A stretch of DNA of 64,000 nt from a phage. Below are positions 3,299 to 27,643 of the stretch, one piece after another; positions within the stretch are counted from its first letter, which is position 1; every line of letters begins with the position of its first letter. A model generated the notes under the pieces. It saw only the letters and a list, made by a program, of their open reading frames with translations, was not told where the DNA came from and did not search any database. Both the position numbers and the translations under genes were made by a program. The DNA lies in the sequence record PV467749.1, one strand, 5' to 3'.

Positions 3299-3558
3299 TG
3301 TTTATTCCATTCTTTTTTTTTGGCCTTGATGGTTTTATATTGGATTTGGTTTCTTAATGCTGATAAGTATCGTTGAATGAACAGATCTTGATAGTTTGTT
3401 CCAATGAATTTCATAAGATAAAGTTCACCGTTGATAACATCCACTTCAGGTGCACCATATAAGGCATTGTTTTTTCTAAGGGCATGGATTAAAGAGAATA
3501 GGGCAGTTTGATACTCAACTCCTGATAAAATCTTCATGTTTTGTGAGCAAATAATCAT
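3283..3558 (-). CDS. Family A small protein
   Basis: Track ORF 91 aa; IGTNYQDL. Confidence 0.5.
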   Translation of the reverse strand: MIICSQNMKILSGVEYQTALFSLIHALRKNNALYGAPEVDVINGELYLMKFIGTNYQDLFIQRYLSALRNQIQYKTIKAKKKEWNKQCDTD

Positions 3559-3772
3559 CTAGTTTATCCTGTATAACATTCGTTAATTGTTCGATATATT
3601 CTGTGCAAAACTTATCTTGATATTGAGTCCCCATAAAGTACAGCAACCATAGCTCATTAACTTTAGCTCGCATTTGGTTCCATGTAAGGCTGGGGTCATC
3701 GTAGACTATCCTTGCTATAGGGGTTAGTTTACGGACTATAGTTTCATATTCATCTAGTGTTAAGTGTTTCAT
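3515..3772 (-). CDS. Family A small protein
   Basis: Track ORF 85 aa; MGTQYQDK. Confidence 0.5.
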   Translation of the reverse strand: MKHLTLDEYETIVRKLTPIARIVYDDPSLTWNQMRAKVNELWLLYFMGTQYQDKFCTEYIEQLTNVIQDKLDDYLLTKHEDFIRS

Positions 3773-3987
3773 TTACATTTGTCCCTTATTAGATCAGTGA
3801 GGGCAACTATGTGTGCAACAACATACTCTTCCTGAAAGTTCGTCCCCAGTACAGCCATCATGCGTATATCGGTGGTGTTTATCCTGTGTTCCCTTACACA
3901 TAAACCTTCTGTGTGAGGAAGTGTAAAATATTTGTTTATTGCAGCAACGATAATTTTATTCTTCTCGGAGTTACTTAAATGTTTCAT
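3769..3987 (-). CDS. Family A small protein
   Basis: Track ORF 72 aa; LGTNFQEE. Confidence 0.5.
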   Translation of the reverse strand: MKHLSNSEKNKIIVAAINKYFTLPHTEGLCVREHRINTTDIRMMAVLGTNFQEEYVVAHIVALTDLIRDKCK

Positions 3988-4196
3988 AGTTTACTCCTGA
4001 TATAATTCTGAAGTGCAATTAAGTATTCCCCTACATAATACACCTGAAAGTCTGTATCAAGGAATGCACCCATAAGTAAATCTTTTTCTAATACCCTTGA
4101 TAAGTTAAGGTCTGCATTTGAAAGGTATATAAGTAAGATTTCACCCTGTGCGGAATTGAAACGTTTCTTATATTCTTCTGGTGTTAAAAAAATCAT
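3984..4196 (-). CDS. Family A small protein
   Basis: Track ORF 70 aa; LDTDFQVY. Confidence 0.5.
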   Translation of the reverse strand: MIFLTPEEYKKRFNSAQGEILLIYLSNADLNLSRVLEKDLLMGAFLDTDFQVYYVGEYLIALQNYIRSKL

Positions 4197-4408
4197 AATT
4201 TGCTCCTGATATATTTCTCAAGAGATGACAAATACTTTTCCTCATAATACTTCTGATAGTCTGTTCCTAAGAATGCACCCAAAAGTATTTCATTTTCCAA
4301 TACCTCGGCTAAGTTTAAATCAGAAGTCTCTTCGTATATTATGAGGATTTCAAGTTGTCTGGCAGCGATGCGTTCAGTATATTGATATGAGTTTTCTATA
4401 ATAATCAT
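4193..4408 (-). CDS. Family A small protein
   Basis: Track ORF 71 aa; LGTDYQKY; close paralog of the 3984 copy. Confidence 0.5.
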   Translation of the reverse strand: MIIIENSYQYTERIAARQLEILIIYEETSDLNLAEVLENEILLGAFLGTDYQKYYEEKYLSSLEKYIRSKL

Positions 4409-4614
4409 AATTTACTCTTTATATCTTGAATTAAAAATCGAATCCATTCTTCAACATAATCTTCCTGATGGTTTGTGTTCAGTACAGCCAACATGCGGAT
4501 CTCTGCTCTTGCAACTTCAATTTCAGTTTTAGGAAGGTCTTTGCTGATATCCACCATTAAGTCCATGTATTTCAAGATAAGACCGTATGATTGGGTTCGT
4601 GTTATAGTTTTCAT
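4405..4614 (-). CDS. Family A small protein
   Basis: Track ORF 69 aa; LNTNHQED. Confidence 0.5.
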   Translation of the reverse strand: MKTITRTQSYGLILKYMDLMVDISKDLPKTEIEVARAEIRMLAVLNTNHQEDYVEEWIRFLIQDIKSKL

Positions 4615-4811
4615 TGTTTCCTCGTGGACAATATTTTATTTTTCAATGTATCCATATATTGAATCACCCATCTTTCCTGATAGTTAGTTCCCAAAGTAAT
4701 CAAAAGGTATAACTCCATTCGTTCTACGTGTGTGTCTGTATTATAAATCTTTGTGAAGTTTTTACGTAACAGTTCTTGATAATCTTCTTTATTTAAAATA
4801 CGCATTTTCAT
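4611..4811 (-). CDS. Family A small protein
   Basis: Track ORF 66 aa; LGTNYQER. Confidence 0.5.
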   Translation of the reverse strand: MKMRILNKEDYQELLRKNFTKIYNTDTHVERMELYLLITLGTNYQERWVIQYMDTLKNKILSTRKQ

Positions 4812-5005
4812 AGTCTACCTTTTATGTCCCTTCGTAATTCTTGTAAGTATAGTTCGATATACTTTTCTTGATAGTTAGTTCCTATGAAAAGTTTCATAAC
4901 CAATTCACGCTTATATGCAATACCACGGATATGTGACATATGTAGGATATATGCCATGTTGGATATGAGTGTGTGGTTGTGCTCTTCTTGAGTTAAAATA
5001 CGCAT
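4808..5005 (-). CDS. Family A small protein (first gene of array)
   Basis: Track ORF 65 aa; IGTNYQEK; preceded on minus strand by TTGACT-N16-TATATT and GGAG RBS (~5012-5075). Confidence 0.5.
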   Translation of the reverse strand: MRILTQEEHNHTLISNMAYILHMSHIRGIAYKRELVMKLFIGTNYQEKYIELYLQELRRDIKGRL

Positions 5006-5034
5006 AGGGACTCCATTAAAAATAATATCAATCC

Positions 5035-5075
5035 AATAATATACGATTCATATAAAAAGTCAATAACATTTTATA
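5035..5075 (-). promoter_or_regulatory. Candidate sigma70-like promoter driving the family A array
   Basis: Minus strand reads TTGACT-16nt-TATATT then GGAG and the ATG at 5005. Confidence 0.4.
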
Positions 5076-5254
5076 AGTAATACCCCTTTATCGAAGTCGC
5101 TAAGGTTACCCGCCCTTTAGCCCCCTACGCATTTTGCCATAGTCCAATCCCTTTTTATTCATAAAAGTCAAGGGATTACCTATGCATTTTTTTAACGCTG
5201 AAGTTTAAAAATGCCTTGACTTTTTTATGATTCAGTACTAAATCCTTTTACGCA

Positions 5255-5464
5255 TTAATCCTTCGTTACGCTTACGATTATCTGTGTATCCCCATAGTCC
5301 TGCCATACTTCCACGCCAGCCGTCGCCCTGGTTAGTCGTGCTGTCATCTGCTTAATGGTCTTAGGCTTTAGTGGAACCTGTTGCAGTACTGTACGCATAG
5401 CACTATCGACGTTATCATGTACGCCTGCAATAGTGCCTAGGACGCTGTATACTGTATAGAACAT
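5255..5464 (-). CDS. Hypothetical protein
   Basis: Track ORF 69 aa; GGAGGG RBS before ATG; GC-rich hairpin AGGCCGC/GCGGCCT upstream at ~5496-5516. Confidence 0.45.
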   Translation of the reverse strand: MFYTVYSVLGTIAGVHDNVDSAMRTVLQQVPLKPKTIKQMTARLTRATAGVEVWQDYGDTQIIVSVTKD

Positions 5465-5532
5465 ATGTATGCCCTCCTGATATAGTTAAGGCCGCTACAA
5501 GGCGGCCTATGATGTTTGGTGATGTGTAACGC

Positions 5533-5934
5533 TTACAGTCCTAAGATAGTGCGTGCTTCGTTACGTTCCGTACACAGCTGCATGATGTGAGCAAGTAAGT
5601 CCTTGCTAATGTATCCGGTGTTCATAGCTTCACGAATAGATACATCATAAGCACCGAACCCAGTGCGAACGATACGCACATCATTCAGGTTAGTATTATA
5701 GATACCGCCGAGATCAACGGCTTCGAATACTACATCAACAGAATATTCATTGTTGCCATCGTGGAAGTTTTCCAGTGCAATAGTATTGGAAACCGCCCAA
5801 CGTTTGCAGTTTCCAATGATGCGGCACTGTTCCGGTTGGATAGTGCCATTACTTACAGCGTACTCCAGTGCATCTTTACCAAAAGTCCGAGCCAGTACTA
5901 AAACGTCAGCGAAGGAAGTGATTGAGAAGGTCAT
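5533..5934 (-). CDS. Hypothetical protein
   Basis: Track ORF trimmed to MTFSITSF behind AAGGAG RBS; upstream track residues translate the promoter/hairpin. Confidence 0.55.
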   Translation of the reverse strand: MTFSITSFADVLVLARTFGKDALEYAVSNGTIQPEQCRIIGNCKRWAVSNTIALENFHDGNNEYSVDVVFEAVDLGGIYNTNLNDVRIVRTGFGAYDVSIREAMNTGYISKDLLAHIMQLCTERNEARTILGL

Positions 5935-6023
5935 GATAAAACTCCTTAATTTAGGAGGGAGAACCATTTCCCCCTCTCTATGTAAAACATTATACATGAA
6001 TCTAAGTACTATGCAAGTACTTT

Positions 6024-6356
6024 TTACATTTTGATACCTGGATTCAGGTAGCGGTGAGATCCATACTCTGGATCGGTTTCGGTCCAGTACTGTAAATCGA
6101 TAGTACCTTTCGCGTTAATCTTGTCTACCAGCTTATTCATCTTAGCGTATACTACATCAGCATCGATGCGTTTAAAGCCAGTGGCTTTAGTGAAGTAGTA
6201 GTGATTTGCTTCACTATCATTCAGGATGTACCGAGAACCGTTTGCCGTTTGTGCGATAATGATTGAGTATTCTACGTTACGGTCGAGGCCGTCGATGAAT
6301 ACAGAGGAAACATTAGTACGGATGAATGCTTTAACGATAGCGATTGAAGTAGTCAT
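6024..6356 (-). CDS. Hypothetical protein
   Basis: Track ORF 110 aa. Confidence 0.5.
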   Translation of the reverse strand: MTTSIAIVKAFIRTNVSSVFIDGLDRNVEYSIIIAQTANGSRYILNDSEANHYYFTKATGFKRIDADVVYAKMNKLVDKINAKGTIDLQYWTETDPEYGSHRYLNPGIKM

Positions 6357-6557
6357 TTTGAATCTCCTAACTTTGTGGGCCGTCGCACCATTGCCGCCCT
6401 ACGAGATACATTATCGCAGTACTGATATACTTTGTCAATACTTTTTTATTAATAGTTTTCACCCCACCAGCAGATAGTTACTCACCGTTATTAACTATAT
6501 ATTTTGGATACACCTATGCACCCTGTGGGCTAGTTTTTGTCTATGCGTATATAATAG

Positions 6558-6590
6558 CAAAGGGACTGACCGGAGTCAATCCCTTTTTTT
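6558..6590 (-). terminator. Rho-independent terminator (UCCG loop) with embedded -35
   Basis: AAAGGGACTGAC-CGGA-GTCAATCCC flanked by A-run and T-run; on minus the stem carries TTGACT followed by TATTAT. Confidence 0.55.
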
Positions 6591-6601
6591 ATTCTTTTTT
6601 G

Positions 6602-6802
6602 TTAGATGATTCTCCAATCATCAACGATCATGGTAAGATACCGAACCAGTGATTCGAGTGATTCGTGTTCTCGATAGTCTGCCGCTCCACCAGCGGTACA
6701 AGTACAGCCGATTAAGCCGTTTTGTAGTTCCTGGATCTTTACGTCGATCTGGTTGGCTTTAGCTTCTTTCAGTACTGCAACCAGGGCGATAGCGATAGAC
6801 AT
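6602..6802 (-). CDS. Hypothetical protein
   Basis: Track ORF 66 aa; upstream promoter/leader hairpin module. Confidence 0.45.
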   Translation of the reverse strand: MSIAIALVAVLKEAKANQIDVKIQELQNGLIGCTCTAGGAADYREHESLESLVRYLTMIVDDWRII

Positions 6803-6892
6803 AATGTTTTACTCCAAACTATTGGCGGGAGAACTATTCCCCCGCTCTATGTAAAACATTATACATTACTGGTTAGTACTGTCAAATAGTTT

Positions 6893-7150
6893 TTATGAAA
6901 TATCTTCGATGTAGTCGGCCCATTTCATTTTTTCAGTACTGTCAATGGCGACCGGATTATTTGGATCAAACCATTCACCATCACCGCAATACATACCCAC
7001 GGCTACGGTTTTATAGCCATCCTGGGCAGTACACCACGACATTGCACGATAGATATGGCCTTTAACTGGTTGCAGTACTGGTAACGTTTTATGGTCTTCT
7101 ACGTAGGCCATAGCTTGTGGATTTACCCGATATTGTGTGAACTGATCCAT
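6893..7150 (-). CDS. Hypothetical protein
   Basis: Track ORF 85 aa. Confidence 0.5.
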   Translation of the reverse strand: MDQFTQYRVNPQAMAYVEDHKTLPVLQPVKGHIYRAMSWCTAQDGYKTVAVGMYCGDGEWFDPNNPVAIDSTEKMKWADYIEDIS

Positions 7151-7226
7151 TATGTTTCCCCTTGTAGTTAGTAAAGTTATTACATCAGTACTATCAAGCT
7201 ATGTCAATAGTACTGAAATAAAACTT

Positions 7227-7451
7227 TTAGATTAGATTATTGAGGCCGTCAATGGTAGACTCACCTTCTTCTTTCTCCCATTGTCGGTAGTACTTCCATG
7301 CTTCATGATAGGTGGCGATTAGTTCATCTTTTTGATCCTGGTTACATGCCAGTACTGAATCACGGTGAGCGGTGTTATAGATAGAATCGAATGATTTCTT
7401 CTCTTCTGCCAGGTTAGCTACTTCCCGCATCAGTTCATCAAAGTTAGCCAT
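7227..7451 (-). CDS. Hypothetical protein
   Basis: Track ORF 74 aa; AAGGAG RBS; promoter TTGCAT-17-TATAAT plus leader hairpin at 7470-7526. Confidence 0.55.
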   Translation of the reverse strand: MANFDELMREVANLAEEKKSFDSIYNTAHRDSVLACNQDQKDELIATYHEAWKYYRQWEKEEGESTIDGLNNLI

Positions 7452-7469
7452 TTTATTACTCCTTTTAGT

Positions 7470-7526
7470 GGGGGAGGATATCTCCCCCTATGCAAAACAT
7501 TATACTTTGTTTTAGTTATTATGCAA
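7470..7526 (-). promoter_or_regulatory. Early-type promoter plus 5' leader hairpin (representative of ~30 copies)
   Basis: Minus strand: TTGCAT-17nt-TATAAT, gttttgcata, hairpin GGGGGAG/CTCCCCC, then AAGGAG RBS. Confidence 0.6.
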
Positions 7527-7782
7527 GTACTTTTTTCATATAAACATTAAATTCTACACCGCCGTAACCTTCCACGATGATATGTTTTGCGTTATCACGT
7601 TTGCACATAGTGAAACCGTTGTTGATGTGTTCTGAATTTTCCAGGGCGACATCACCGATAGCGGCACATACAGCACTAATAACAGTATTCCGCAAAGTAC
7701 TGGTATCATTGGCGGTCATAGTAGTTTGCAGTACTACGTTGTCGTATACGTGTGCATTGATAGTGATTTCGATAGTGTTCAT
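7519..7782 (-). CDS. Hypothetical protein
   Basis: Track ORF trimmed to MNTIEITINA; promoter/leader module at 7801-7862. Confidence 0.5.
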   Translation of the reverse strand: MNTIEITINAHVYDNVVLQTTMTANDTSTLRNTVISAVCAAIGDVALENSEHINNGFTMCKRDNAKHIIVEGYGGVEFNVYMKKVLA

Positions 7783-7800
7783 GTTGTATCTCCTGGACTT

Positions 7801-7862
7801 GAGGGGAAACCATTTCCCCCTCTCGATATAAAACATTATACGTTAATCTAACTACAATGCAA
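7801..7862 (-). promoter_or_regulatory. Early-type promoter plus 5' leader hairpin
   Basis: Minus strand: TTGCAT-16nt-TATAAT then hairpin GAGGGG/CCCCTC; plus-strand signature gatataaaacattatacg. Confidence 0.6.
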
Positions 7863-7869
7863 GTACTTT

Positions 7870-8061
7870 TTAAATTTTATTTCCGATATAGTCCGGCATG
7901 TTCTTTTCAGTCATACGCTTTGCTAATGTCTGCATATGGCTTATAGCGTTCAAGGTGTCTTCCTCCAGGGATGAATCGAGATAATCAGGATCATTCTTCA
8001 CCTTGCAATGATTATGATAGCGTAGTACTGCCAGTACTTTTTTAACTTCTTCAACTGTCAT
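7870..8061 (-). CDS. Hypothetical protein
   Basis: Track ORF 63 aa. Confidence 0.45.
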   Translation of the reverse strand: MTVEEVKKVLAVLRYHNHCKVKNDPDYLDSSLEEDTLNAISHMQTLAKRMTEKNMPDYIGNKI

Positions 8062-8330
8062 AATAAGTACTCCACTTCGTTAGCTTTCAGGTTAGTATCA
8101 ATCATCAATGGTTTTTTGTAGTTCACAAAACGATTAGTTTTTTCGATAGCAAATCCCATATAATCCAGCTTACTAACAGTACATTCATTCTTAAAAACTT
8201 CTTTCGCTGCATCGATGGCTGATTGCATGGATAACCGACCATCTAAATTAATGTTTCCAAATGATCCACCAGCAGAAGTAGGATTACCGTTCATATCTTT
8301 AATGATCATAGTAGCGGAGTAGCTGGACAT
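8058..8330 (-). CDS. Hypothetical protein
   Basis: Track ORF 90 aa; start overlaps stop of 7870..8061 gene. Confidence 0.5.
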   Translation of the reverse strand: MSSYSATMIIKDMNGNPTSAGGSFGNINLDGRLSMQSAIDAAKEVFKNECTVSKLDYMGFAIEKTNRFVNYKKPLMIDTNLKANEVEYLL

Positions 8331-8417
8331 AATTTTGTTTCCTTTTATTGGTGGGGAGAACTATTCTCCCCTTGATGTAAACTATTATACAGTACTGATA
8401 TACTTTGTCAAATACTT

Positions 8418-8825
8418 TTATTCGCCCATATAGATTAGATTATCATCGCCTACATAGGGATCGCAAACGTTGATTTCTTCGCAGTACTTAGTGAATATAT
8501 CATCATAGTGACCGATATCACGATCCCAAAAACCAGTGCCGTGACCTTCGCGAGTAAGAAAGAGATCATGACCTGCATGACTATAAGTATAATCAGGATT
8601 ATGGTGTTTTTGTACTGTTTCCATATCTTCACCATGTACAGCAAGGAAACGTGAACATGCAATCACTGCCGCTTGATGGGCTTGCTCTGATAATTCATAA
8701 TCTTCCAGGTATTCGCCGTTCTCATTGTGTACTGTACTGAATTGCATAGCTTCAATGTAACCAGCGACCATTGCAGCATGATTTTTATCGTTGGCGATGG
8801 ACCGAGCTTGATTAGTAGTAGTCAT
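8418..8825 (-). CDS. Hypothetical protein (His/Asp-rich)
   Basis: Track ORF 135 aa. Confidence 0.5.
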   Translation of the reverse strand: MTTTNQARSIANDKNHAAMVAGYIEAMQFSTVHNENGEYLEDYELSEQAHQAAVIACSRFLAVHGEDMETVQKHHNPDYTYSHAGHDLFLTREGHGTGFWDRDIGHYDDIFTKYCEEINVCDPYVGDDNLIYMGE

Positions 8826-8908
8826 GATTTTATTCCTTTTAGTATCGGGGAGAACTATTCTCCCCTTGATGTAAACTATTATACAGTACTGGTATACTTT
8901 GTCAATAC

Positions 8909-18963: not shown

Positions 18964-18994
18964 ACACAAAAAAGCCCACCGTTTAAGGTGGGCT
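18964..18994 (-). terminator. Rho-independent terminator, 3' of 19016..19498
   Basis: Minus: AGCCCACC-ttaaac-GGTGGGCT followed by TTTTTTGTGTTT. Confidence 0.7.
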
Positions 18995-19015
18995 AGTGAT
19001 TCAGTACTTTAATTG

Positions 19016-19498
19016 TTATGCTTCAACTTTGCGATGAGCTTCGATCCATTCCTCGCGAGTCATACCACTGGAGTTAATCGCGTCCAGTACTACCGCAATA
19101 CAGTTACCACGCACCGGAATCAGATATTCTTCCCCGTTGTCCAGTACTACCGCTACGCGTTCCTGAATCCATTTTTTGGCTTTTACTTCTGGCTTGTCTT
19201 CCCCATACTTAACCGCCAGGGCTTTTTGTGCCATCTCTGTAACTACTTCCAGATCCAATCCAACTACTGCCGCCTGAATACTTTCGATTGTTGCTTGTAG
19301 TTCTGCTTCACGGGCCGCCTTTGCCGCTTCAATTTCTGCCGCTTTATTTGCTTGTAGTTCTTTCGCAGTACTGTACGCGATGTTAAAATTATTGCGTACC
19401 GCTTTCATGGTATCGTTATCCAGTTCAGCCAGGATCTCAGCCGCTACGTTAGTTTCATTTGCTACCAGTGCTTTGATGAATGATTTTACATTAGCCAT
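19016..19498 (-). CDS. Hypothetical protein (Ala/Glu-rich helical N-half)
   Basis: Track ORF trimmed to MANVKSF; terminators flank both ends. Confidence 0.55.
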   Translation of the reverse strand: MANVKSFIKALVANETNVAAEILAELDNDTMKAVRNNFNIAYSTAKELQANKAAEIEAAKAAREAELQATIESIQAAVVGLDLEVVTEMAQKALAVKYGEDKPEVKAKKWIQERVAVVLDNGEEYLIPVRGNCIAVVLDAINSSGMTREEWIEAHRKVEA

Positions 19499-19699
19499 TT
19501 TATAAATCCTCAATTAAAGTTTAGTTTACGTTTATTAGTGTATCAAAGTTTTCTCGACGTGTCCAGTTTTTCGTTCGACTTACTGGCGGTCTACTTAGTG
19601 CTCCCCGTCTTGATGTAATACATTCTACGCTTTTCTGCGGTAATGTCAACTACTTTCTTAAAACTATTTTCAAAGTATCTCAGTACTACGATACTACAA

Positions 19700-19726
19700 A
19701 AACAAAAAAGCCCACCAGGTGGGCTA
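19700..19726 (-). terminator. Rho-independent terminator, 3' of 19732..19962
   Basis: Minus: GCCCAC-ctg-GTGGGC followed by TTTTTTGTTTTT. Confidence 0.65.
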
Positions 19727-19731
19727 TGTAC

Positions 19732-19962
19732 TTAATCAGTGAGTAAAATATTAAACACTTTACCATTTAACGTTATTGGTGCACTGCTACCAGGCTCAAG
19801 ATCCGTTAATATACCTGCAATCGCTTTATCATTGGCGACCTTTCCAGTGTCCAACAGTACTACAGTACTGATAAGATTAACGCTCGTTTCAATATCATAA
19901 TGCACGGCGTTAAGTAGTTGTGTAGTACTGCTTTCGTTAAGTAAAACAATTCGCTTAGTCAT
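19732..19962 (-). CDS. Hypothetical protein
   Basis: Track ORF 76 aa; terminator immediately 3' at 19700-19726. Confidence 0.5.
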   Translation of the reverse strand: MTKRIVLLNESSTTQLLNAVHYDIETSVNLISTVVLLDTGKVANDKAIAGILTDLEPGSSAPITLNGKVFNILLTD

Positions 19963-19983
19963 GATGTTACCCCGTAGTATCTA

Positions 19984-20283
19984 TCAACGGCAATTAATAA
20001 CGCCGGTATGCGTTACTTTCTCAGTATCCATTACAGTGACCGAACCGCGTTTAGTACTGGCATCATAATAAATTGTTGTGCTACCGTTTTCGTCTTCTTC
20101 ATGGAACGGGCCGTTTTTAAATGCTTCCGGCTGGATCTCTAAATCCTTTAATACAATCTCGCCAGTACTTTCATCGGTCATTGCAACAGTGCACTGAATG
20201 AATTTTTCACTACTTACATCTAATGACGCATTAACAGCGAAAGAGGAAACAGATAAAGCCAGGGCGATGATTGTAATTTTCAT
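19984..20283 (-). CDS. Secreted/periplasmic protein candidate
   Basis: Trimmed to MKITIIALALSVSSFAVNA, a signal-peptide-like N-terminus. Confidence 0.5.
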   Translation of the reverse strand: MKITIIALALSVSSFAVNASLDVSSEKFIQCTVAMTDESTGEIVLKDLEIQPEAFKNGPFHEEDENGSTTIYYDASTKRGSVTVMDTEKVTHTGVINCR

Positions 20284-20389
20284 TTGATTATCCTTAGTTA
20301 CCAGGGGAACCGCTCCCCTATGCAAAACATTATACGCGTTTAAAAACTAATTGCAAGTATTTTAATAAAAAGTATTTGAAAAATAATTG

Positions 20390-20418
20390 TTGACAACTGC
20401 ATCCAGTACTGGCATAAT
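20390..20418 (+). promoter_or_regulatory. Plus-strand early-type promoter opposing flanking genes
   Basis: TTGACA-17nt-CATAAT then tactacatcaagacg; downstream CCCACCGGGTGC and a hairpin with U-rich tail at ~20498-20532. Confidence 0.5.
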
Positions 20419-20524
20419 TACTACATCAAGACGAAACAGTCACTAACCCACCGGGTGCCGAGATCCGTCTATTAAATGATTCAGTACTGAAAAAGTAACG
20501 GGGAGTTATTATCTCCCCGCGTTG

Positions 20525-20746
20525 TTATTTTGTAAGGTATAAACAGAAGTCGCCTTTATTTGCTACGCCGCCAGTGTAACGCGATGAATAGTTAGAAACG
20601 TCCTGGACTTCTGCTATTACCAGGGTATCATCATTCAATTCGTCGCAGAAGCAAACGGCTGGATCTTGTACGCCGATTTTGTCGGCATGTTCCCGCATAG
20701 ATTTAACCAGTGCTTCCAGTTGGGAAAGAGTAGTGATATTAGCCAT
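20525..20746 (-). CDS. Hypothetical protein
   Basis: Track ORF trimmed to MANITTLSQ. Confidence 0.5.
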   Translation of the reverse strand: MANITTLSQLEALVKSMREHADKIGVQDPAVCFCDELNDDTLVIAEVQDVSNYSSRYTGGVANKGDFCLYLTK

Positions 20747-20832
20747 TTTATTTTCCTCATTACCAGGGAGAACCATTTCTCCCTTTGATGTAAACCATTA
20801 TACAGTACTGAAAACTAATTGCAAGTACTTTT

Positions 20833-21093
20833 TCAATATTGTTTGTCGTCGTCTTCCTCGATGAATTGACCGACGAAATGATCTACTTTCGCTTTGAGGC
20901 TTTTATAATCTTCTTCTACTTCCTTTAAACGTTCCTGGTAGTATTCCAATGCTTCAAGATACGCCGCCTCAGCAGTTTTTGCACGCATGGCTAAATTCAT
21001 GCCACGCGTTTCATCAAATAGCCAATAACCATCGGTGCACTGGCTAATAGATAATGTCTTGCTTAGTGCTGTATAGCTAATTACTTTACTCAT
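20833..21093 (-). CDS. Hypothetical protein
   Basis: Track ORF 86 aa. Confidence 0.5.
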   Translation of the reverse strand: MSKVISYTALSKTLSISQCTDGYWLFDETRGMNLAMRAKTAEAAYLEALEYYQERLKEVEEDYKSLKAKVDHFVGQFIEEDDDKQY

Positions 21094-21150
21094 TAGATAA
21101 CCCTCAGTAAAGGCGGGAACTATTACCCGCCATTATCTCAGTACTGAATA

Positions 21151-21390
21151 TTACATTCCAACCATTGCAGCACGGATCGCAGTAGTGCTATATTTGAATC
21201 CGTCCGGCGTTGTAGTAGTACCGTTGGCTTTTAATCTGCGGTACATACATTCCGCAGCAATATCTTTAGTTCTACTTTGTGCGATGCAACTTTGTGCAAG
21301 CCGATACAATGACTCACCGTTATTAATCCAAAGGCTTACATTCCAATGAGTTTTGTTTTTGTGTCCGTTGTAAGTTTTAGTACTAGCCAT
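21151..21390 (-). CDS. Hypothetical protein (paralog of 23196..23435)
   Basis: Shares KNKTHWNVSLWINN...PDGFKYSTTAIRAAMVGM. Confidence 0.55.
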   Translation of the reverse strand: MASTKTYNGHKNKTHWNVSLWINNGESLYRLAQSCIAQSRTKDIAAECMYRRLKANGTTTTPDGFKYSTTAIRAAMVGM

Positions 21391-21480
21391 TTTTAAATCC
21401 TCGTTTGAGCGGGGAACCACTCCCCGCCTTGATGTAAAGTATTATACGCTTTTAAACTTAGTTTACAAGTACTTTTTAAA

Positions 21481-22092
21481 TTAATATTCGATTGATTCCA
21501 CTACGCCATCAATAACATTGAATTGATATTCGTTACCCTCAATCAGTGCAGTAATGTTTTCAGTAGTGAATTGATCCTCATATGCATTCTCTAAATCACG
21601 GTACAACTTACGAGATAATTCACGGATCGCATCAGTCAGTAAGTTTTCCAGGTCATCAGCAAGTGCCGCTTGTTTTACAGTTAAATCAGTGTAGCGAGTA
21701 TCAACGCAACCGCTTACCGTGTTTTCGTGTGCGTAGCGAGAGTGTGAACGTTCTACACTCATTGCCAAATCATCTTCATTCAACAAGTGACGGATTGAAC
21801 GATATTTCGTTAACGCCTTAACCTTGCGTAAAAACTTCTCAGCGTCAACGTGGTTAGTACTGATTGATGCACCGTCACCTTGCGACCAAAAACCACTGTA
21901 TTGCAATTCAGCTTCATCTATGCCGTATTCTGGTAGTACTGTTTCTTTATAGTACTCGATAACGCCCTCAGCAAAGAAATTATCCTCACATGAACGCTCA
22001 CGATCCCGAACCAGTTCGATAGCCGCCGTTTTTTGTTCTGCGTTCAGTTCAGAAAAAGCCATAACAAAAGTAGTAGTAGTGATAGTTTTCAT
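21481..22092 (-). CDS. Hypothetical acidic protein
   Basis: Track ORF 203 aa; contains GFWSQGDGASI; family not recognised. Confidence 0.55.
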   Translation of the reverse strand: MKTITTTTFVMAFSELNAEQKTAAIELVRDRERSCEDNFFAEGVIEYYKETVLPEYGIDEAELQYSGFWSQGDGASISTNHVDAEKFLRKVKALTKYRSIRHLLNEDDLAMSVERSHSRYAHENTVSGCVDTRYTDLTVKQAALADDLENLLTDAIRELSRKLYRDLENAYEDQFTTENITALIEGNEYQFNVIDGVVESIEY

Positions 22093-22316
22093 TTTGTAAC
22101 CCTCATTCAGTAGTTGATGTAAGTATTATACGCTTTTAAAAACATTTGTCAAACTATTTTATCAGGGGAGTTTTTCGTGTGCCTTACTCCTGGGCTACTT
22201 AACGGGAAGTTACTTATTTCGTTCCCCGTCCTGATGTAAAACATTATACGCTTATTGAGATAGTTTGCAAGTACTTTTTAAAAATAGTTTTCAGTACTGA
22301 ATAGTAAAAAAAAGTA

Positions 22317-22345
22317 TTGACAGCATTATCAAGTACTGGCATAAT
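22317..22345 (+). promoter_or_regulatory. Plus-strand early-type promoter
   Basis: TTGACA-17nt-CATAAT; transcript would contain CCCACCGGGTGC and downstream GCACCCTATGGG inverted partner. Confidence 0.5.
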
Positions 22346-22522
22346 ATACCCCATGACAACAGCTAACCCACCGGGTGCACAATTGTAACTATACTAAACT
22401 AATTTTTCTATAGATACACTCCCGCACCCTATGGGCTACGGCTTATCTGCCAATGAATACATTATGCCAGTACTGACAAAATAAGTCAATACCGGCAATT
22501 GTAAATTTTTCAAAAAATATGA

Positions 22523-22753
22523 TTATACTGCAATCGCGTCCAGGCTGTAATAATAATAAGTGCCGTATTGGTGTACTTTATTACCTTTTATTTCAGTACT
22601 GAATGAATCCGAACGATTTGCATATGATGTTAATTTAAAGTACTTTGATTTGCTGATACGTTGCCATACACCACAGATCCGCTGTAAGTAAGTAGTTTTA
22701 TTCGTGGTCGTATCTTTTACGGTTTTAACTTCAGTCATATACATATTAGTCAT
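22523..22753 (-). CDS. Hypothetical protein
   Basis: Track ORF 76 aa. Confidence 0.45.
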   Translation of the reverse strand: MTNMYMTEVKTVKDTTTNKTTYLQRICGVWQRISKSKYFKLTSYANRSDSFSTEIKGNKVHQYGTYYYYSLDAIAV

Positions 22754-22840
22754 TTTTATTACTCCAGGTTATAGGCGGGAAGAGTTCCCGCTCTCGATGT
22801 AAAACATTATACGCCTTTAAACATAGTTTGCAAGTACTTT

Positions 22841-23107
22841 TTATTCAAGTACTGCAATCTTTTTAGTACGGTACACGGTCACGCGGTTGCCCTTTCGGTC
22901 GAGCTTTATTTCTACCACTCGACGCGATACACTATCGGGACTTTTTAAGGCCGCTAACCAGTACTGTAATGATCTGGCGGTACTACGCTTTACAATGGCC
23001 CAACGTTTACCACGTTCCGATTGTACGCCCATATCTTTAAACGTTGCCCCGTCCTGGCGTGCGGCGATCCGAGCTTGTTCACGCGTCGCAAAATACTTAA
23101 TATTCAT
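22841..23107 (-). CDS. Hypothetical protein (paralog of 10859..11263)
   Basis: Trimmed to MNIKYFATREQARIAARQDGATFKDMG. Confidence 0.55.
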   Translation of the reverse strand: MNIKYFATREQARIAARQDGATFKDMGVQSERGKRWAIVKRSTARSLQYWLAALKSPDSVSRRVVEIKLDRKGNRVTVYRTKKIAVLE

Positions 23108-23195
23108 GCTGTTGCCCTTATCGTTGGTGTATGAATAAAACACTATTATAAAGTACTATCCCCGTGCAATAGTACTTTAAATAAATTCTATTCTA

Positions 23196-23435
23196 TTACA
23201 TTCCAACCATTGCCGCACGGATCGCAGTAGTGCTATATTTGAATCCGTCCGGTGTTTTATCTTGTCCAGTCTGTTCTAAAAATAACATCATATGACGGGC
23301 CGCATCATTGCGATTAGTGCTATCGTTAATAAAGTCCTGGGCCAACCGGTATAATGATTCATCGTTATTAATCCAAAGGCTTACATTCCAATGAGTTTTG
23401 TTTTTGTGACCTAAGAACATTTTTGATTTAGCCAT
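23196..23435 (-). CDS. Hypothetical protein (paralog of 21151..21390)
   Basis: Trimmed to MAKSKMFLGHKNKTHWN. Confidence 0.55.
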   Translation of the reverse strand: MAKSKMFLGHKNKTHWNVSLWINNDESLYRLAQDFINDSTNRNDAARHMMLFLEQTGQDKTPDGFKYSTTAIRAAMVGM

Positions 23436-23528
23436 TTTTTTAATCCTCTTATATAGTGGGGAACTATTCCCCACCTGATGTAAAACATTATACGCTTTTA
23501 AACTTAGTTTGCAAGTACTTTATTAAAC

Positions 23529-23891
23529 TTATTTGTAAATTTTGCCACTTTCTACCCATACCAGGAAACGAGGCATATTATCCCATGCATCTTGCTTTAA
23601 GTTTAAGCCGTGCAATTCCTCAGTTGTTGCCATGCCTGGGACTGGTTTACTATACACCGAGAATTTTTCGCCCATGTACTGATAAACCATCGTCAAATCA
23701 CTGGCGATCATCTTATGGATCATCGCATCAAGCATCACGGTCGCGGCGTATTGTTCACGCTTAAGCGGCAGCATTTTAATCAGTTCGCGGTATGCGTCAA
23801 TGTGAGTTTTAACCGTTGCCGCCGGAAGATCTTTCATCTCGTCGCGGAAGTTAACCAGGTTAGCAATAATTTTGGTGATTTGAGTCGCCAT
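23529..23891 (-). CDS. Hypothetical protein
   Basis: Track ORF trimmed to MATQITKIIA behind RBS. Confidence 0.5.
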   Translation of the reverse strand: MATQITKIIANLVNFRDEMKDLPAATVKTHIDAYRELIKMLPLKREQYAATVMLDAMIHKMIASDLTMVYQYMGEKFSVYSKPVPGMATTEELHGLNLKQDAWDNMPRFLVWVESGKIYK

Positions 23892-24199
23892 CGTTTTAAT
23901 CTCTCTTAAAAGTGAGTTAGGAGCGTTTCCCCCGTCTCGATGTAAAACATTATACGCCTTTAAACATAGTTTACAAGTACTTTCTACAAATACTTTTAAA
24001 ATAGTTTTCTTTCTATATAGGGAAACTATCATTCAGTACTGAATCAACCAAATCACTACTACACCCCGTAAAACGGCCTCAATCGCATTCTAACGCATTA
24101 TTACACCTAAGCTATACATTTGCACCATTCTAATCATTCCAGTGCGTTACGGGCCGTTTAAACGCGTTAAATTATTTTCAATTATTTTGTTTTTAGGTA

Positions 24200-24227
24200 T
24201 TGACTCAGTACTAAAAAAGCGTATAAT
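24200..24227 (+). promoter_or_regulatory. Plus-strand early-type promoter in ORF-free region
   Basis: TTGACT-16nt-TATAAT then tactacatagacgcgagaaag. Confidence 0.5.
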
Positions 24228-24415
24228 TACTACATAGACGCGAGAAAGCGGATACCCCAGGGGGTGCGGAATTGTGCCCAAAATTCAAGATATAAAAAAA
24301 GGATACACTCCCGCACCCTAGCAGGTAAACGCACTTTCTCAGTACTGAAATATAGTACCATAGTCCGGCCCAGGATAGCAAGCAAATTAATTAAAACTTT
24401 TTTGCTTCCAGGGTA

Positions 24416-24443
24416 TTGCTTTATTTTTTCAGTACTGTATAAT
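24416..24443 (+). promoter_or_regulatory. Plus-strand promoter candidate
   Basis: TTGCTT-16nt-TATAAT then agttccatcaagtcgagaaag and CCCACCGGGTGC. Confidence 0.45.
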
Positions 24444-24540
24444 AGTTCCATCAAGTCGAGAAAGACTCAAGCCCACCGGGTGCATAGTTACGCCCAAAAT
24501 TCAGTACTGAAAAAATTTTTAAAAATATCCGTCCAGGTCG

Positions 24541-24569
24541 TTGACATTGCCCCCAGTTTATAAGATAAT
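24541..24569 (+). promoter_or_regulatory. Plus-strand promoter candidate
   Basis: TTGACA-17nt-GATAAT. Confidence 0.4.
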
Positions 24570-24666
24570 GATTCCAGATTCAGAAAAATCTAACACCAGA
24601 TACTGCGGGGAAACTATCCCCACGCGGTAGGGGAACTATTGGAAAAAACAAAATAAAATTTTGATT

Positions 24667-24794
24667 TAGCCGTCTATACTTCCAGACGTGTAACCATCTA
24701 GCCGTTTAGCCGTCCAAACGTCTAGCCATCCAGCCATCCAGAAATCTAGCCGTTTAGCCGTCTAGATGGATAGCCATCTTTACTTCCAGACTTC
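24667..24794. repeat. Tandem degenerate 8-bp repeat array (consensus TAGCCRTC, ~16 units)
   Basis: Strict 8-bp phase: tagccgtc tatacttc cagacgtg taaccatc tagccgtt tagccgtc caaacgtc tagccatc cagccatc cagaaatc tagccgtt tagccgtc tagatgga tagccatc ... Confidence 0.6.
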
Positions 24795-25875
24795 TGGAGG
24801 GCTAGACATATCTACGCCCAAAATCCATCCAGGGTAACTACACCCAAAATCCGTCAGTACTATACCATAGATCTATCTTTTGAAAGGGAGTATTCAGTAC
24901 TGCCATCATAGCCCTCACTATGTTACCCTAGGAGGATGAAGACTATCATGTAGTACTGAATACTGTTAGAGGGAATCCACCAGCTTGTGCTGGTGGCATA
25001 ATGCTTTAGATTAAAATCAGTACTGACACCATTCTGTTAATATCAGTACTGTTATTACGATTTTCATATGAGGTTCAAAAAGATGTACCACCACAGGAGG
25101 AACTATCTTTTCTGTACTGTCTCACGACAGGAGGTAGAGTAAATGAATTGTTCGCAGCAACTCATCTCTCTATGTAGAACATTATACAGTACTGAATCAT
25201 AATGTCAATAGCTTTCTTTCATTATTCAGTACTGATATTCTTGAGAACTACCCGACTACAAACATCATTATATCCCACAAATCATAAACGTCCCAACGTA
25301 AATTTCAACTTTCGAAGAACCAACTTTTATTTCATAGGTACTCCAAAATTTTTAGGATCGAGATTTAGGATGGAGTACTAACCAACTTTTTGCTGGAGCC
25401 TCAAGGGGTAATTGAATTTTACCCCGAAGGGTAAAAGGGTAATTGAAATTAAGGTGAAAGTAATAATTCAGTACTAATCATTGCGTGATTACTTTTGATT
25501 ACATTTGATGTAATTTGCAAAATGGAAAAGGAGCTTGGAAACTACAAAGTACGGCAGACTTCCTCTGCCTACTTAGTGACATATCGACACCTTCAGTACT
25601 GAATACTTTTAGGGCAGTACTGAATCCTTCCCTAGCATTCTTGAGTAATCTTGTCTATAATAATCAGTACTGAATCATATATAATCATTCTGTGATTCTA
25701 CGGTGCTCATATAAATGTTTATATATGATTACTTATGACTACATATGATTACGGGGTTTAGCCTGGGGAGAATCCTAGTGATCGCATTTGTCCAGGCTGA
25801 ATTTTAACAATTCTTCTAATTGTTAAAGCCTGTCCAATGCTTTCCCTGCGGAGCTTCCCCTGTCTATATGTTGAA

Positions 25876-26082
25876 TTACTTCCTATATATAAGCATTAAC
25901 ATATAGTAGTACTGATTATGCTGTACATTCTCTTTAATATTATAAGGGTCTATAGCAATCTCGGTACATCTGTTAAATGCATATCTATTAAATGCCAGTA
26001 CTATTATAGATCTAATCCATGCTTGGTCAGTCGGTGGTAGTTTACTTATATAGTACTCTTTATAGTTTTTTATGTTCTGCAT
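25876..26082 (-). CDS. Family B small protein
   Basis: Track ORF 68 aa; N-terminal EYY/EFY and hydrophobic C-terminus LMLIYRK. Confidence 0.45.
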   Translation of the reverse strand: MQNIKNYKEYYISKLPPTDQAWIRSIIVLAFNRYAFNRCTEIAIDPYNIKENVQHNQYYYMLMLIYRK

Positions 26083-26093
26083 AGTATACCTTA

Positions 26094-26285
26094 TTATTTC
26101 AAAGTACCATATAGTACTCTTAATAGGAAGTAGTACGTATTAGAGATATCATTAGTAGTTAAAACAATCTTAGTACACATATTAAATTCGTATTGAGTCA
26201 TTGCCAGGGGGATTAAATTGTTAACCCATGCTTGTTCGTTTTCTTTGAGTTTACTTATATAGAAATCTTTATGTTCTTTATTCAT
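26094..26285 (-). CDS. Family B small protein
   Basis: Track ORF 63 aa; MNKEHKDFYISKL. Confidence 0.45.
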   Translation of the reverse strand: MNKEHKDFYISKLKENEQAWVNNLIPLAMTQYEFNMCTKIVLTTNDISNTYYFLLRVLYGTLK

Positions 26286-26487
26286 ATAGGAATAGTATAC
26301 CTATGATGCCGGAGTACATATTAGTACTGTTATTATTGTCGTTTGCGTTTAAGGTCATTTGAATACAATTATTGTAGCATAATCTGCCGAAATATGTATC
26401 AGTACTTAAAGGTGCTGTAGTCCTTAGAAACATTTGTTCTGTGGGGCTGAGGTGTTTGGAGTAGAATTCTTTATGTTCTTTATTCAT
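26278..26487 (-). CDS. Family B small protein
   Basis: Track ORF 69 aa; close paralog of the 26861 copy. Confidence 0.5.
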   Translation of the reverse strand: MNKEHKEFYSKHLSPTEQMFLRTTAPLSTDTYFGRLCYNNCIQMTLNANDNNNSTNMYSGIIGILFLYE

Positions 26488-26492
26488 ATTAG

Positions 26493-26678
26493 TTAGTGTC
26501 TGTATATAAGTAATAGTAAGAATACGTACTGCACCTGTTCATCTTTAGTATTGAGTACTGTACGTATTGCGTCATGGAACAAGAATATAGTACTTGGGTC
26601 ATTAGAATTTAAGGGGTTTACGGGGACGGCGTGTTTGTAGTTCCCTTTAACAAATTGTATATAGTATTCTCTATGCAT
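26493..26678 (-). CDS. Family B small protein
   Basis: Track ORF 61 aa. Confidence 0.45.
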   Translation of the reverse strand: MHREYYIQFVKGNYKHAVPVNPLNSNDPSTIFLFHDAIRTVLNTKDEQVQYVFLLLLIYRH

Positions 26679-26679
26679 A

Positions 26680-26868
26680 TCAGTACCTATATATTAGGGC
26701 GAGAATGTAGTACAGTTTATATGTATTATAATCTGGGTTGATAGCACATAGTGTGTGGTAGTGGAATTGTTTGGTATTTTTCTTATCCTTGATATCTATT
26801 GGGATTTGTGGTATAAGCATTTGGGAGTTTAGATCGAGATGGCTTAAGTAGAATTCTTTGTTATTCAT
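26680..26868 (-). CDS. Family B small protein
   Basis: Track ORF 62 aa. Confidence 0.45.
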   Translation of the reverse strand: MNNKEFYLSHLDLNSQMLIPQIPIDIKDKKNTKQFHYHTLCAINPDYNTYKLYYILALIYRY

Positions 26869-27067
26869 AGAAGAATATTAGTCCCATTACGCCTGAGTAT
26901 TGAATATTTTTGTTATTGTTTTCTAAAGCTTCTAGAGTAATACGTATACAATTATTAAAGCAATCTCTGGCGTGTGGTGTATCTAAACGTAAAGGTGATA
27001 CACTCCTTAGAAACATTTGTTCTGATGCACTGAGGTGTTTGGTGTAAAATTCTTTCTGTTCGTTCAT
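26861..27067 (-). CDS. Family B small protein
   Basis: Track ORF 68 aa; MNEQKEFYTKHLSASEQMFLR. Confidence 0.5.
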   Translation of the reverse strand: MNEQKEFYTKHLSASEQMFLRSVSPLRLDTPHARDCFNNCIRITLEALENNNKNIQYSGVMGLIFFYE

Positions 27068-27077
27068 ATTGGCCTCT

Positions 27078-27266
27078 TTAGTACACGAAAGCTAGGTACA
27101 GTACATGATACAGTACTCGATGATAGCTATCAAAATCTAGTATACATGCTTTAGTGCACATAGTAAAGTACACTTTATCGTTTTGAGCATTGATACCGCG
27201 AGGTTTATCTAATAGATTAGTACTGAGGTACATTGGGAAATATTTTGTGTAGTATTCTTTATGCAT
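27078..27266 (-). CDS. Family B small protein
   Basis: Track ORF trimmed to MHKEYYTKYF. Confidence 0.45.
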   Translation of the reverse strand: MHKEYYTKYFPMYLSTNLLDKPRGINAQNDKVYFTMCTKACILDFDSYHRVLYHVLYLAFVY

Positions 27267-27267
27267 A

Positions 27268-27450
27268 TTAGTACCTGAATATAAGTAGGATAGTGTTATA
27301 TAATTGGTCATAGCTACTACTATTTTCTATACTGCGTTCTATGCAATTATTGAATCCCAGTACTGCCAAATCGTTATCCAGGGGGACTTTATATCTGGCG
27401 TAGTGTTCAAATATACTGGGGAGAAATTGTGTGTAGTATTCTTTGTGCAT
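27268..27450 (-). CDS. Family B small protein
   Basis: Track ORF 60 aa; MHKEYYTQFL. Confidence 0.45.
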   Translation of the reverse strand: MHKEYYTQFLPSIFEHYARYKVPLDNDLAVLGFNNCIERSIENSSSYDQLYNTILLIFRY

Positions 27451-27451
27451 A

Positions 27452-27643
27452 TTAGTACTTATATATTAGTAAAAGGATGTGATACAGTACTCTATTATAG
27501 TCCTCAATATATATCGAGGATTTAGTGCACTGAATGAAGTAGTCTTTTTCGTAGTCTTTTTCTATACTCAATTGTTTTGTTGGTACAAGGTGTTGGAGAT
27601 ACATTGGGAGTTTCTCTATGTAGTATTCTTTGTGGTTATTCAT
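27452..27643 (-). CDS. Family B small protein
   Basis: Track ORF 63 aa. Confidence 0.45.
   Translation of the reverse strand: MNNHKEYYIEKLPMYLQHLVPTKQLSIEKDYEKDYFIQCTKSSIYIEDYNRVLYHILLLIYKY

Follow-up and report, generated by a model that had tools for sequence, protein, structure and literature searches.

Hyper-abundant signature words are a known kind of genomic element, exemplified by HIP1, Chi and the DNA-uptake sequences. HIP1 (GCGATCGC) is the highly iterated palindrome of cyanobacterial genomes, and selection was argued to act on its distribution rather than on single sites (PMC5861425). Here we describe such a word in a virus, the palindrome AGTACT, in a 64-kb stretch of phage DNA (64,000 nucleotides of sequence record PV467749.1, the whole of which we call the window). 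In the best reading of our results, AGTACT is a palindromic signature that one clade of jumbo myoviruses with genomes of ~350 kb keeps at hyper-abundance under selection, with CAGTACTG as the preferred form and AAGTACT in Mimasvirus.

HIP1 seems to be the closest analogue of AGTACT. Both are short palindromes that are hyper-abundant genome-wide, are present in all frames as well as in non-coding DNA, and are conserved above the level of control words. Nevertheless, HIP1 is an 8-mer of cellular chromosomes, 15–300-fold enriched, with a 10–90-kb periodicity and no link to promoters, whereas AGTACT is a viral 6-mer (a weak 8-mer), 9–12-fold enriched (16–19-fold in the terminal repeats), evenly spaced on a scale below 2 kb and found at fixed positions in early promoters. 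What identifies HIP1 itself (GCGATCGC, a cyanobacterial host and a periodicity of tens of kb) is thus not what we observed, since the word is a different one, the genome is viral and the evenness lies below 2 kb. Chi, the DNA-uptake sequences and KOPS are, like AGTACT, dense and sharply specific self words whose density is kept while their positions turn over, and over-representation, sharpness and density kept amid turnover were all found here. Those words, however, lack symmetry, depend on orientation and are read by known proteins (RecBCD, ComP and FtsK), while AGTACT is a palindrome, showing neither asymmetry or strand bias nor a known machine. In Neisseria, terminators can be formed by two uptake sequences in inverted orientation, and AGTACT builds terminators in this phage as well.

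Two further systems resemble AGTACT in other respects. GATC, the Dam site of Enterobacterales and of phages P1 and Mu, is a genome-wide short palindrome that is also present in the −10/−35 regions of certain promoters, coupling transcription to replication; unlike AGTACT, it is not over-represented in its hosts, and in the phage studied here it is depleted (0.56 of expectation). A functional model for genome-wide copies is provided by p6 of phage phi29, a histone-like viral protein that coats the whole genome, with nucleation favoured close to the ends, and that both represses an early promoter and aids the early-to-late switch; it recognizes bendability with a 24-bp periodicity, however, and not a defined word, and no homologue of p6 came up here, where none was sought. 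In the phage literature (full-text searches with phage terms, and the phAPEC6, fEgEco12, CBB and RaK2 papers) we found no mention of an AGTACT or CAGTACTG motif, and in the searchable literature there seems to be no earlier description of a palindromic signature word that is viral, tied to early promoters and kept in four genera.

Abundance, spacing and lineage distribution of AGTACT

Megablast placed the window in the Asteriusvirus group, the ~350-kb jumbo coliphages PBECO4, 121Q, phAPEC6 and fEgEco12. The direct terminal repeats of fEgEco12 measure 20,993 bp, as confirmed experimentally (PMC13070987), and local alignment to this genome showed that the window is the reverse complement of an assembly with a collapsed repeat. 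Base 1 of fEgEco12, the physical left end, corresponds to window position 25573; window 1–5.1 kb is the DNA next after the left repeat, window 25.6–64 kb is unique sequence from the right end of the genome, and the genes of the repeat lie on the minus strand. With respect to AGTACT, the window comprises:

5234–63975, no strand: the AGTACT field, with 274 copies (61 as CAGTACTG) in all three coding phases and in intergenic DNA
1–5233, minus strand: a desert without the motif (zero AGTACT, GTAC at background level), formed by 17 or more divergent paralogues in tandem that have an LGTNYQ motif in common
~5085–25573, minus strand: the direct terminal repeat (one collapsed copy), with early genes and 137 AGTACT copies
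24856–25913, no strand: the densest cluster (13 copies, most of them extended to TTCAGTACTGA), in a non-coding leader straddling the physical genome end
25574–30600, minus strand: unique DNA adjoining the right terminal repeat, with arrays of genes of 60–75 amino acids and ~7.6 AGTACT per kb of coding DNA

The 274 copies in the window compare with 22.4 ± 4.9 in 100 dinucleotide-preserving shuffles (largest value 34) and with 21.5–21.9 expected from order-0 and order-1 Markov models, and AGTACT ranks first in over-representation among all 4096 hexamers. The extended form CAGTACTG occurs 61 times with about one copy expected. The enrichment is therefore stronger than the one noticed by eye in an earlier note on this DNA, whose local figures were also close: it had given one copy every 100–300 bp between 5 and 26 kb, where we counted 142 copies at 5,201–26,000 (one per 146 bp), and about 12 copies within 24.85–25.95 kb, where we counted 13. 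Two sites lie ~20 and ~40 bp outside the terminal-repeat boundary. The enrichment is, however, not a feature of 5–26 kb, as that note had it, but continues to 64 kb (~7 per kb at 5.2–30.6 kb and ~2.9 per kb at 30.6–64 kb, with zero copies at 1–5,233), and is both genome-wide and clade-wide.

The same note had named, as the outcome that would count against it, an observed/expected ratio near one after control for codon usage and dinucleotide composition, and the enrichment survives both. Synonymous-codon shuffles within four gene blocks gave 12.0, 7.7, 14.1 and 8.1 copies where 66, 30, 41 and 34 were observed (3–5.5 times the shuffled level, with no shuffle coming close), and the test errs on the cautious side, as AGT, ACT, GTA and TAC codons owe part of their frequency to the motif. 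A codon-usage or dinucleotide artefact is thus ruled out by the Markov models together with the dinucleotide and synonymous shuffles. In coding DNA, the motif is read as AGT-ACT 76 times, as nAG-TAC-Tnn 36 times and as nnA-GTA-CTn 59 times, so that all three frames are used, and it is also present in non-coding DNA (4.6 per kb, versus 2.6 per kb in coding DNA). Ser-Thr pairs are spelled AGT-ACT in 76 of 150 cases (22 expected), and the Ser-Thr and Val-Leu dipeptides are themselves in excess (150 versus 95 and 138 versus 89, respectively); therefore, the pressure for the motif reaches the protein sequence. The enrichment reflects selection at the DNA level. We also noticed that the tRNA cluster of fEgEco12 (L006:40892-45140) contains genes for Ser(UGA), Ser(GCU), Met, Asn and two Thr(UGU); tRNA-Ser(GCU) reads AGY codons, which fits the heavy AGT use (32% of Ser codons) imposed by the motif.

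In the whole fEgEco12 genome (353.7 kb of unique sequence) we counted 977 AGTACT sites against 111 expected, which rules out a motif limited to the terminal repeat. Density is 2–3 per kb across the structural, replication and accessory modules and 6–8 per kb in or beside the terminal repeats. Between 40 and 345 kb the sites are more regular than random (coefficient of variation of the gaps 0.895, P=0.001 versus uniform placement), no gap exceeds 1,976 bp (P=0.003), and 13 1-kb bins are empty against 25 expected. Every fEgEco12 gene of at least 1.2 kb holds at least one site, with sites distributed along the genes, and the genome-wide spacing of adjacent sites peaks at 19–24 bp, i.e., about two helical turns. 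Zero copies were found in two deserts, at 21–26 kb and 30–36 kb of fEgEco12. In the window, the desert coincides with the array of LGTNYQ paralogues (window 146–5005, minus strand; at least 17 genes of 65–91 amino acids).

Other palindromes show the opposite trend: 23 palindromic hexamers, including GGTACC and CGTACG, have no copy in the window (summed expectation ~110), and GCGC occurs neither in the window nor in the 354 kb of unique fEgEco12 sequence (0 versus 215 expected in the latter).

The many-fold excess of AGTACT extends beyond the window and fEgEco12 to five further relatives, in which it is the top hexamer: RaK2 (Alcyoneusvirus, on Klebsiella; 80 versus 10 expected in one region and 107 versus 10 in a second), GAP32 (Mimasvirus, on Cronobacter; 79 versus 8.7), CBB (Mimasvirus, on Pectobacterium; 83 versus 10.2 in an internal region and 155 copies in the 24-kb terminal repeat region), Serratia phage BF (Eneladusvirus; 150 versus 7.9) and XbC2 (Mimasvirus, reported on Xanthomonas; 114 versus 7.0). 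Four genera, Asteriusvirus, Alcyoneusvirus, Mimasvirus and Eneladusvirus, thus share the trait, which follows the phage lineage over at least five host genera. It is lacking in the Pseudomonas phage PA5oct (1 versus 10.2) and in 78 IMG/VR relatives with 64–69% identical capsid (199 versus 245 in 797 kb pooled), and no substitute hyper-abundant palindrome was found in these motif-poor relatives (CTGCAG 15 versus 3.2 in PA5oct, nothing notable in the 78 IMG/VR loci). T4 and rV5 are not enriched either (4 versus 7.7 and 1 versus 10.1), and on this ground, together with the lineage distribution, we rejected a trait imposed by the host. In a single 50-kb sample of E. coli K-12 we counted 3 copies (0.06 per kb), and against this one sample the density in the phage is ~45-fold higher genome-wide and ~115-fold higher in the terminal repeat. 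The lineage distribution, the contrast with the host and the genus-specific flanks described below therefore point to a determinant encoded by this clade.

A comparison of 27 orthologue pairs between fEgEco12 and RaK2 (29 kb aligned, 69% nucleotide identity) showed 58 and 66 sites, respectively. Of the 58, 17 (29%) are shared at aligned positions, against 17% for control hexamers (P=0.016); conservation is thus above control words, with a modest effect and for one genome pair. Positions turn over while density is kept, and therefore selection seems to act mainly on density or distribution.

Features of the site and its placement at early promoters

Beyond the hexamer, information is present at positions −1 and +1 only, is mirror-symmetric, and is alike at coding and non-coding sites: ~45% of sites carry C at −1 and G at +1, and fewer than 10% carry G at −1 and C at +1. 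Exact AGTACT is 8.8-fold enriched, while its one-mismatch variants reach 1.1–2.3-fold and the half-broken forms (AGTAC or GTACT without the sixth base) about 2-fold; no single neighbour word is depleted, with AGTATT/AATACT at 1.3 times expectation. A pattern of this kind is what a two-fold symmetric and very sharply specific factor would leave when it reads duplex DNA. Symmetric flanks and sharp specificity therefore argue against recognition of single-stranded RNA and against biased repair of the very-short-patch type. The flank preference differs between genera (CAGTACTG in Asteriusvirus and RaK2, AAGTACT(T/G) in Mimasvirus), which suggests a co-evolving reader. A relation to LexA boxes was rejected, because the spacing of paired sites is not the needed 18 bp and the flanks do not fit.

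The terminal repeat is made up of small genes, and each of them has a sigma70 promoter close to consensus as well as a hairpin in the 5' untranslated region (UTR). We defined strict promoters as TTG[AC][CA]N-16-TAnAAT on the gene strand at 5–30.6 kb (n=29), and the motif is present in 24 of them, at offsets (counted from the first base of the −10 hexamer) of −27 in 14 promoters (AGTACTTGCA, sharing one base with the −35 hexamer), −17/−16 in 4 (TTGACAGTACT or TTGCAnAGTACT, at or just past the end of the −35 hexamer) and −7 in 9 (AGTACT-N-TATAAT); the rest of the spacer varies among them. AGTACTTGCA occurs 16 times on the gene strand; AGTACT-N-TATAAT occurs 12 times and AGTACTGGCATAAT 4 times. 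Identical offsets were found in 14 of 21 promoters of CBB, mostly with both copies (AGTACT-TGCAA-N10-AGTACT-N-TATAAT), and in 14 of 21 promoters of Serratia phage BF, so that in the window, CBB and BF alike the palindrome abuts or overlaps the −35 or −10 hexamer at conserved positions, as operators of dimeric repressors do. Three promoters of the window illustrate the arrangement:

20797–20829, minus strand: early promoter with both copies, AGTACT-TGCAAT-N10-AGTACT-G-TATAAT; sites at 20824–20829 (abutting the −35) and 20804–20809 (abutting the −10)
14838–14872, minus strand: early promoter, AGTACT-A-TTGACA-N10-AGTACT-G-TATAAT; sites at 14867–14872 and 14845–14850
22243–22298, minus strand: three-element array, CAGTACTG ~23 bp upstream of AAAAAGTACTTGCAA-N16-TATAAT; sites at 22293–22298 and 22270–22275

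AGTACT also builds terminator stems, and the three contexts proposed beforehand (beside −35 boxes, within promoter spacers and in terminator stems) were all found. Nine intrinsic terminators with a motif-built stem (CCAGTAC-loop-GTACTGG followed by a T-run) lie on the plus strand at 31.7–50.9 kb, amid 16 RCC1-like paralogues (30.6–50.8 kb):

31732–31756, plus strand: intrinsic terminator with a motif-built stem (CCAGTACTTGATACTGG and a T-run), one of the nine between RCC1-like paralogues
Starts at 32949, 34130, 35327, 37770, 41307, 42548, 47725 and 50833, plus strand: the other motif-stem terminators, CCAGTA..TACTGG and a T-run

The paralogues form a second tandem array (window 30570–50825, plus strand), of 16 RCC1-repeat genes of ~380 amino acids, each with its own promoter and motif-stem terminator; such genes are annotated elsewhere as 'chromosome condensation regulator'.

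Two readings of this placement can be given. The motif may fill any position that is free of sequence constraint (spacers, flanks, stems) under a general pressure for density, or the promoter copies could be functional operators. The quantised offsets, kept across genera despite diverged surroundings, favour a promoter function on top of the general pressure.

The early genes resemble the PeSL cassettes of T4-type phages, in which near-consensus sigma70 early promoters and stem-loops are repeated between small variable early genes (PMC2839356, PMC4122927). The same combination is present here at 5–30.6 kb, with 29 near-consensus promoters and 16 GGGGAG..CTCCCC hairpins. However, PeSLs are confined to plastic regions and their hairpin precedes the promoter, whereas here it follows the promoter, in the 5' UTR. 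This likeness accounts for the cassettes but not for the genome-wide motif, and the text of the 2014 PeSL paper (PMC4122927) contains neither GTAC nor 'palindrom'. The sixteen 5'-UTR hairpins (GGGGAGAA-loop-TTCTCCCC; window 5000–30600, minus strand) stand directly 3' of early promoters and carry no T-run. A separate repeated element of ~150 bp, with a −35 box within a hairpin (GGGATTGACTCCGGTCAGTCCC ... TATTAT) and then a conserved CCCACAGGGTGC, was found at window ~6583, 9340, 12605, 16289 and ~22435 (minus strand) and in CBB (L096 ~15780, 18800 and 19660), and may mark small-RNA genes or structured promoters; an Rfam search of the repeat region gave no match.

A proposed clade-encoded reader and its alternatives

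The reading that we favour, tentatively and with somewhat less than even confidence, is that the clade encodes a symmetric reader for which the promoter-abutting copies are early operators and the ~1,000 evenly spaced copies a self-tag on the phage chromosome. A two-fold symmetric factor of the phage lineage would read AGTACT on double-stranded DNA with the sharpness of a restriction or modification enzyme. In the sigma70-type early promoters of the terminal repeats, the copies set against the −35 and −10, often paired about two helical turns apart, would serve as operators, whose occupancy or modification would switch early transcription. The ~1,000 further copies, one per ~0.4 kb, in every gene and at ~45 times the host density, would tag the whole phage chromosome for the factor, and the tag would serve coating, protection, compaction or self-recognition. 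We infer the reader, as well as the role of the promoter copies and that of the genome-wide ones, from the features of the sites described above. Most of the weight of this reading lies on non-covalent binding, although this form taken by itself is less likely than not.

Several observations weigh against such a reader. A site of 6–8 bp is short for a classical helix-turn-helix operator, and no DNA-binding or nuclease domain was found in the three annotated 'regulators' or in the ten early proteins conserved with CBB. The host density comes from the single 50-kb sample, many of the promoter copies belong to homologous cassettes and are not independent events, and the motif also occupies sequence-free positions such as terminator stems, so that part of the promoter placement could mirror a lack of constraint. 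Moreover, a pure coverage or protection function predicts no gaps such as the two site-free blocks of 5–6 kb, and the LGTNYQ array has no AGTACT at all, compared with 7.6 per kb in the similar small-gene arrays at 26–30.6 kb; recent acquisition of this array is hard to square with the divergence of its paralogues.

An early protein of 203 amino acids (window 21481–22092, minus strand) was considered as the reader and dropped, since it is also present in rV5-like phages that lack the motif. It shares ~55% identity with its counterpart in ~137-kb rV5-like coliphages and is also found in Eneladusvirus and Mimasvirus; its spread shows an exchange of early genes between unrelated phage groups and may account for some odd megablast matches to other genera.

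Instead of being read by binding, AGTACT might be the target of a covalent modification made by the phage (methylation or another group), in which case modified virion DNA and newly made, un- or half-modified DNA would differ at the early promoters, giving a replication-coupled early-to-late switch of the Dam/GATC type, with the dense marks as self label. We consider this rather unlikely, even though a restriction-modification site would be as long and as sharply defined, the informative positions outside the hexamer being limited to ±1, and although the placement of copies directly against the −10 and −35 hexamers recalls that of GATC in the methylation-sensitive promoters of IS10, Mu mom and P1. 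The clade does encode at least two DNA methyltransferases, a C5 enzyme and a Dam-family enzyme, and RaK2 DNA was reported to resist many restriction enzymes (PMC3622015). Nevertheless, the C5-cytosine methyltransferase (g455; fEgEco12 L006:29943-30803, 286 amino acids) aligns over its full length to the catalytic domain of mammalian DNMT3A/3B (E ~1e-23) and is probably CpG-specific, a match that agrees with the CpG methylation reported for RaK2 (PMC3622015), while AGTACT contains no CpG; the enzyme was rejected as the AGTACT reader on this account. The Dam-family enzyme (g162) is non-diagnostic as a reader, since its family is widespread and the Mimasvirus homologue is only 40% identical. Looking for a methyltransferase or endonuclease of ScaI/Eco255I specificity (AGTACT), we found only these two enzymes, the scan covering the neighbours of the methyltransferases and not the whole proteome, and the genes beside both contain no DNA-binding, nuclease or Vsr domain. 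In addition, fEgEco12 DNA was cut normally by 10 enzymes, ScaI and RsaI not being among them (PMC13070987), and modification alone leaves the nine-fold rise in density unexplained.

The motif might also be a cis-site for DNA transactions. It could be preferred by the phage primase, by topoisomerase II or by a nicking enzyme, whose nicks could load the sliding clamp for late transcription, or serve as a signal for recombination or packaging that both strands require at short intervals. The even spacing without gaps above 2 kb, the presence of a palindrome on both strands, the top density around the physical genome end and the two sites just outside the repeat boundary would be expected, and the phage encodes a T4-type primase, a topoisomerase II, a sliding clamp and a gp55-like sigma factor. 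However, we know of no primase that reads duplex palindromes, the known ones reading trinucleotides; the full palindrome is 8.8-fold enriched and the half-broken forms only ~2-fold; the fixed offsets from promoter hexamers are not predicted; and the deserts of 5–6 kb would be left without such sites. We hold this explanation to be distinctly unlikely.

That the motif has no function and arises neutrally from some bias (in mismatch repair of a very-short-patch-like kind, in gene conversion or through the spread of repeated cassettes) seems improbable. Biased repair linked to a methyltransferase was long discussed for HIP1, where it was tested and argued against (PMC5861425), the promoter and terminator cassettes of the phage are indeed repeated, and most coding sites are not conserved in position. 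Yet the absence of a depleted neighbour word (AGTATT/AATACT at 1.3-fold) and of a Vsr-like gene beside the methyltransferases led us to reject repair of the very-short-patch type, and neutrality in general is at odds with the more-than-random evenness, the shared positions above controls (P=0.016), the promoter offsets kept across genera and the zero-copy arrays of divergent paralogues that adjoin arrays with 7.6 copies per kb.

Even less probable is a role at the RNA level, with AGUACU, which a palindrome yields whichever strand is transcribed, as a processing or stability signal or as a building block of hairpins. The motif forms terminator stems and is enriched in all transcribed regions, but recognition of single-stranded RNA does not require mirror-symmetric flanks, hairpin-capable close pairs (≤24 bp) are not in excess (64 versus ~62 expected genome-wide), and the copies upstream of the −35 and in the spacers lie outside the transcript of their own promoter.

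Least probable of all is a site for a host protein that the phage exploits or titrates. An example would be SlmA, a nucleoid-occlusion factor with the site GTGAGTACTCAC, in which the core is the same; the trait-bearing phages tested do infect mostly Enterobacterales, and the Pseudomonas phage PA5oct is without the trait, but GTGAGTACTCAC has 0 copies, GT.AGTACT.AC makes up 2 of 977 sites, G is the least used base at −1, T4 and rV5 are not enriched in the same host, the Mimasvirus reported on Xanthomonas has the trait, and the flank preference shifts with the phage genus. The earlier note had proposed either binding by a dimeric protein, of the phage or of the host, or a target of DNA modification; the two-fold symmetric recognition of duplex DNA, the sharp specificity and the promoter placement kept across genera fit the proposal, while its host-protein variant is made unlikely by T4, rV5, the lineage spread and the absence of the SlmA site.

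Other elements of the terminal repeat and biological meaning

The terminal repeat carries further sequence elements. The E. coli Chi sequence GCTGGTGG was found on the minus strand at window 6464, 6687, 8266, 10168, 13413, 14363, 14621, 18879 and 24977 and on the plus strand at 18941 and 24989, clustered and mostly co-oriented in the intergenic DNA of the repeat; in fEgEco12, one strand holds 24 copies and the other 12, with ~1.3 expected per strand. Such an excess would attenuate RecBCD entering the linear genome ends. An iteron-like array of ~12 copies of the 8-bp TAGCCGTC lies at window 24667–24765, ~0.8 kb inside the physical genome end (25573), and could be an origin or a packaging-recognition element. 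An early protein of 84 amino acids (window 10543–10797, minus strand), kept in CBB, contains a ParE-like toxin domain (Pfam PF24732, E 6e-11).

It is well known that phages escape restriction by shedding short palindromes from their genomes. In these viruses, amid an extreme purge of palindromes, a single one is kept at ~1,000 copies, at a measurable cost in protein sequence and across four genera, and the purge together with the retention of AGTACT implies that an important sequence-specific system is at work. One form of it, which we regard as unlikely though far-reaching, is that AGTACT is a sequence-encoded self label, by which a reader or modifier would separate the phage chromosome from that of the host, while the promoter copies would also time early transcription. 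The DNA of these jumbo phages appears to be without wholesale base replacement, and the label, if real, would be a functional equivalent of the hydroxymethyl-cytosine of T4, reached by sequence composition, and would serve the selective destruction of host DNA, the shut-off of host transcription or the protection of the genome.

Finding the reader would explain the control of early genes in jumbo phages that are poorly understood and are candidates for therapy, and could possibly show how a phage with unmodified DNA tells itself from its host. With a small genome and fast genetics, the system would then also be a tractable experimental model for hyper-abundant palindromes such as HIP1, and AGTACT provides a simple signature by which the clade can be recognized in metagenomes.

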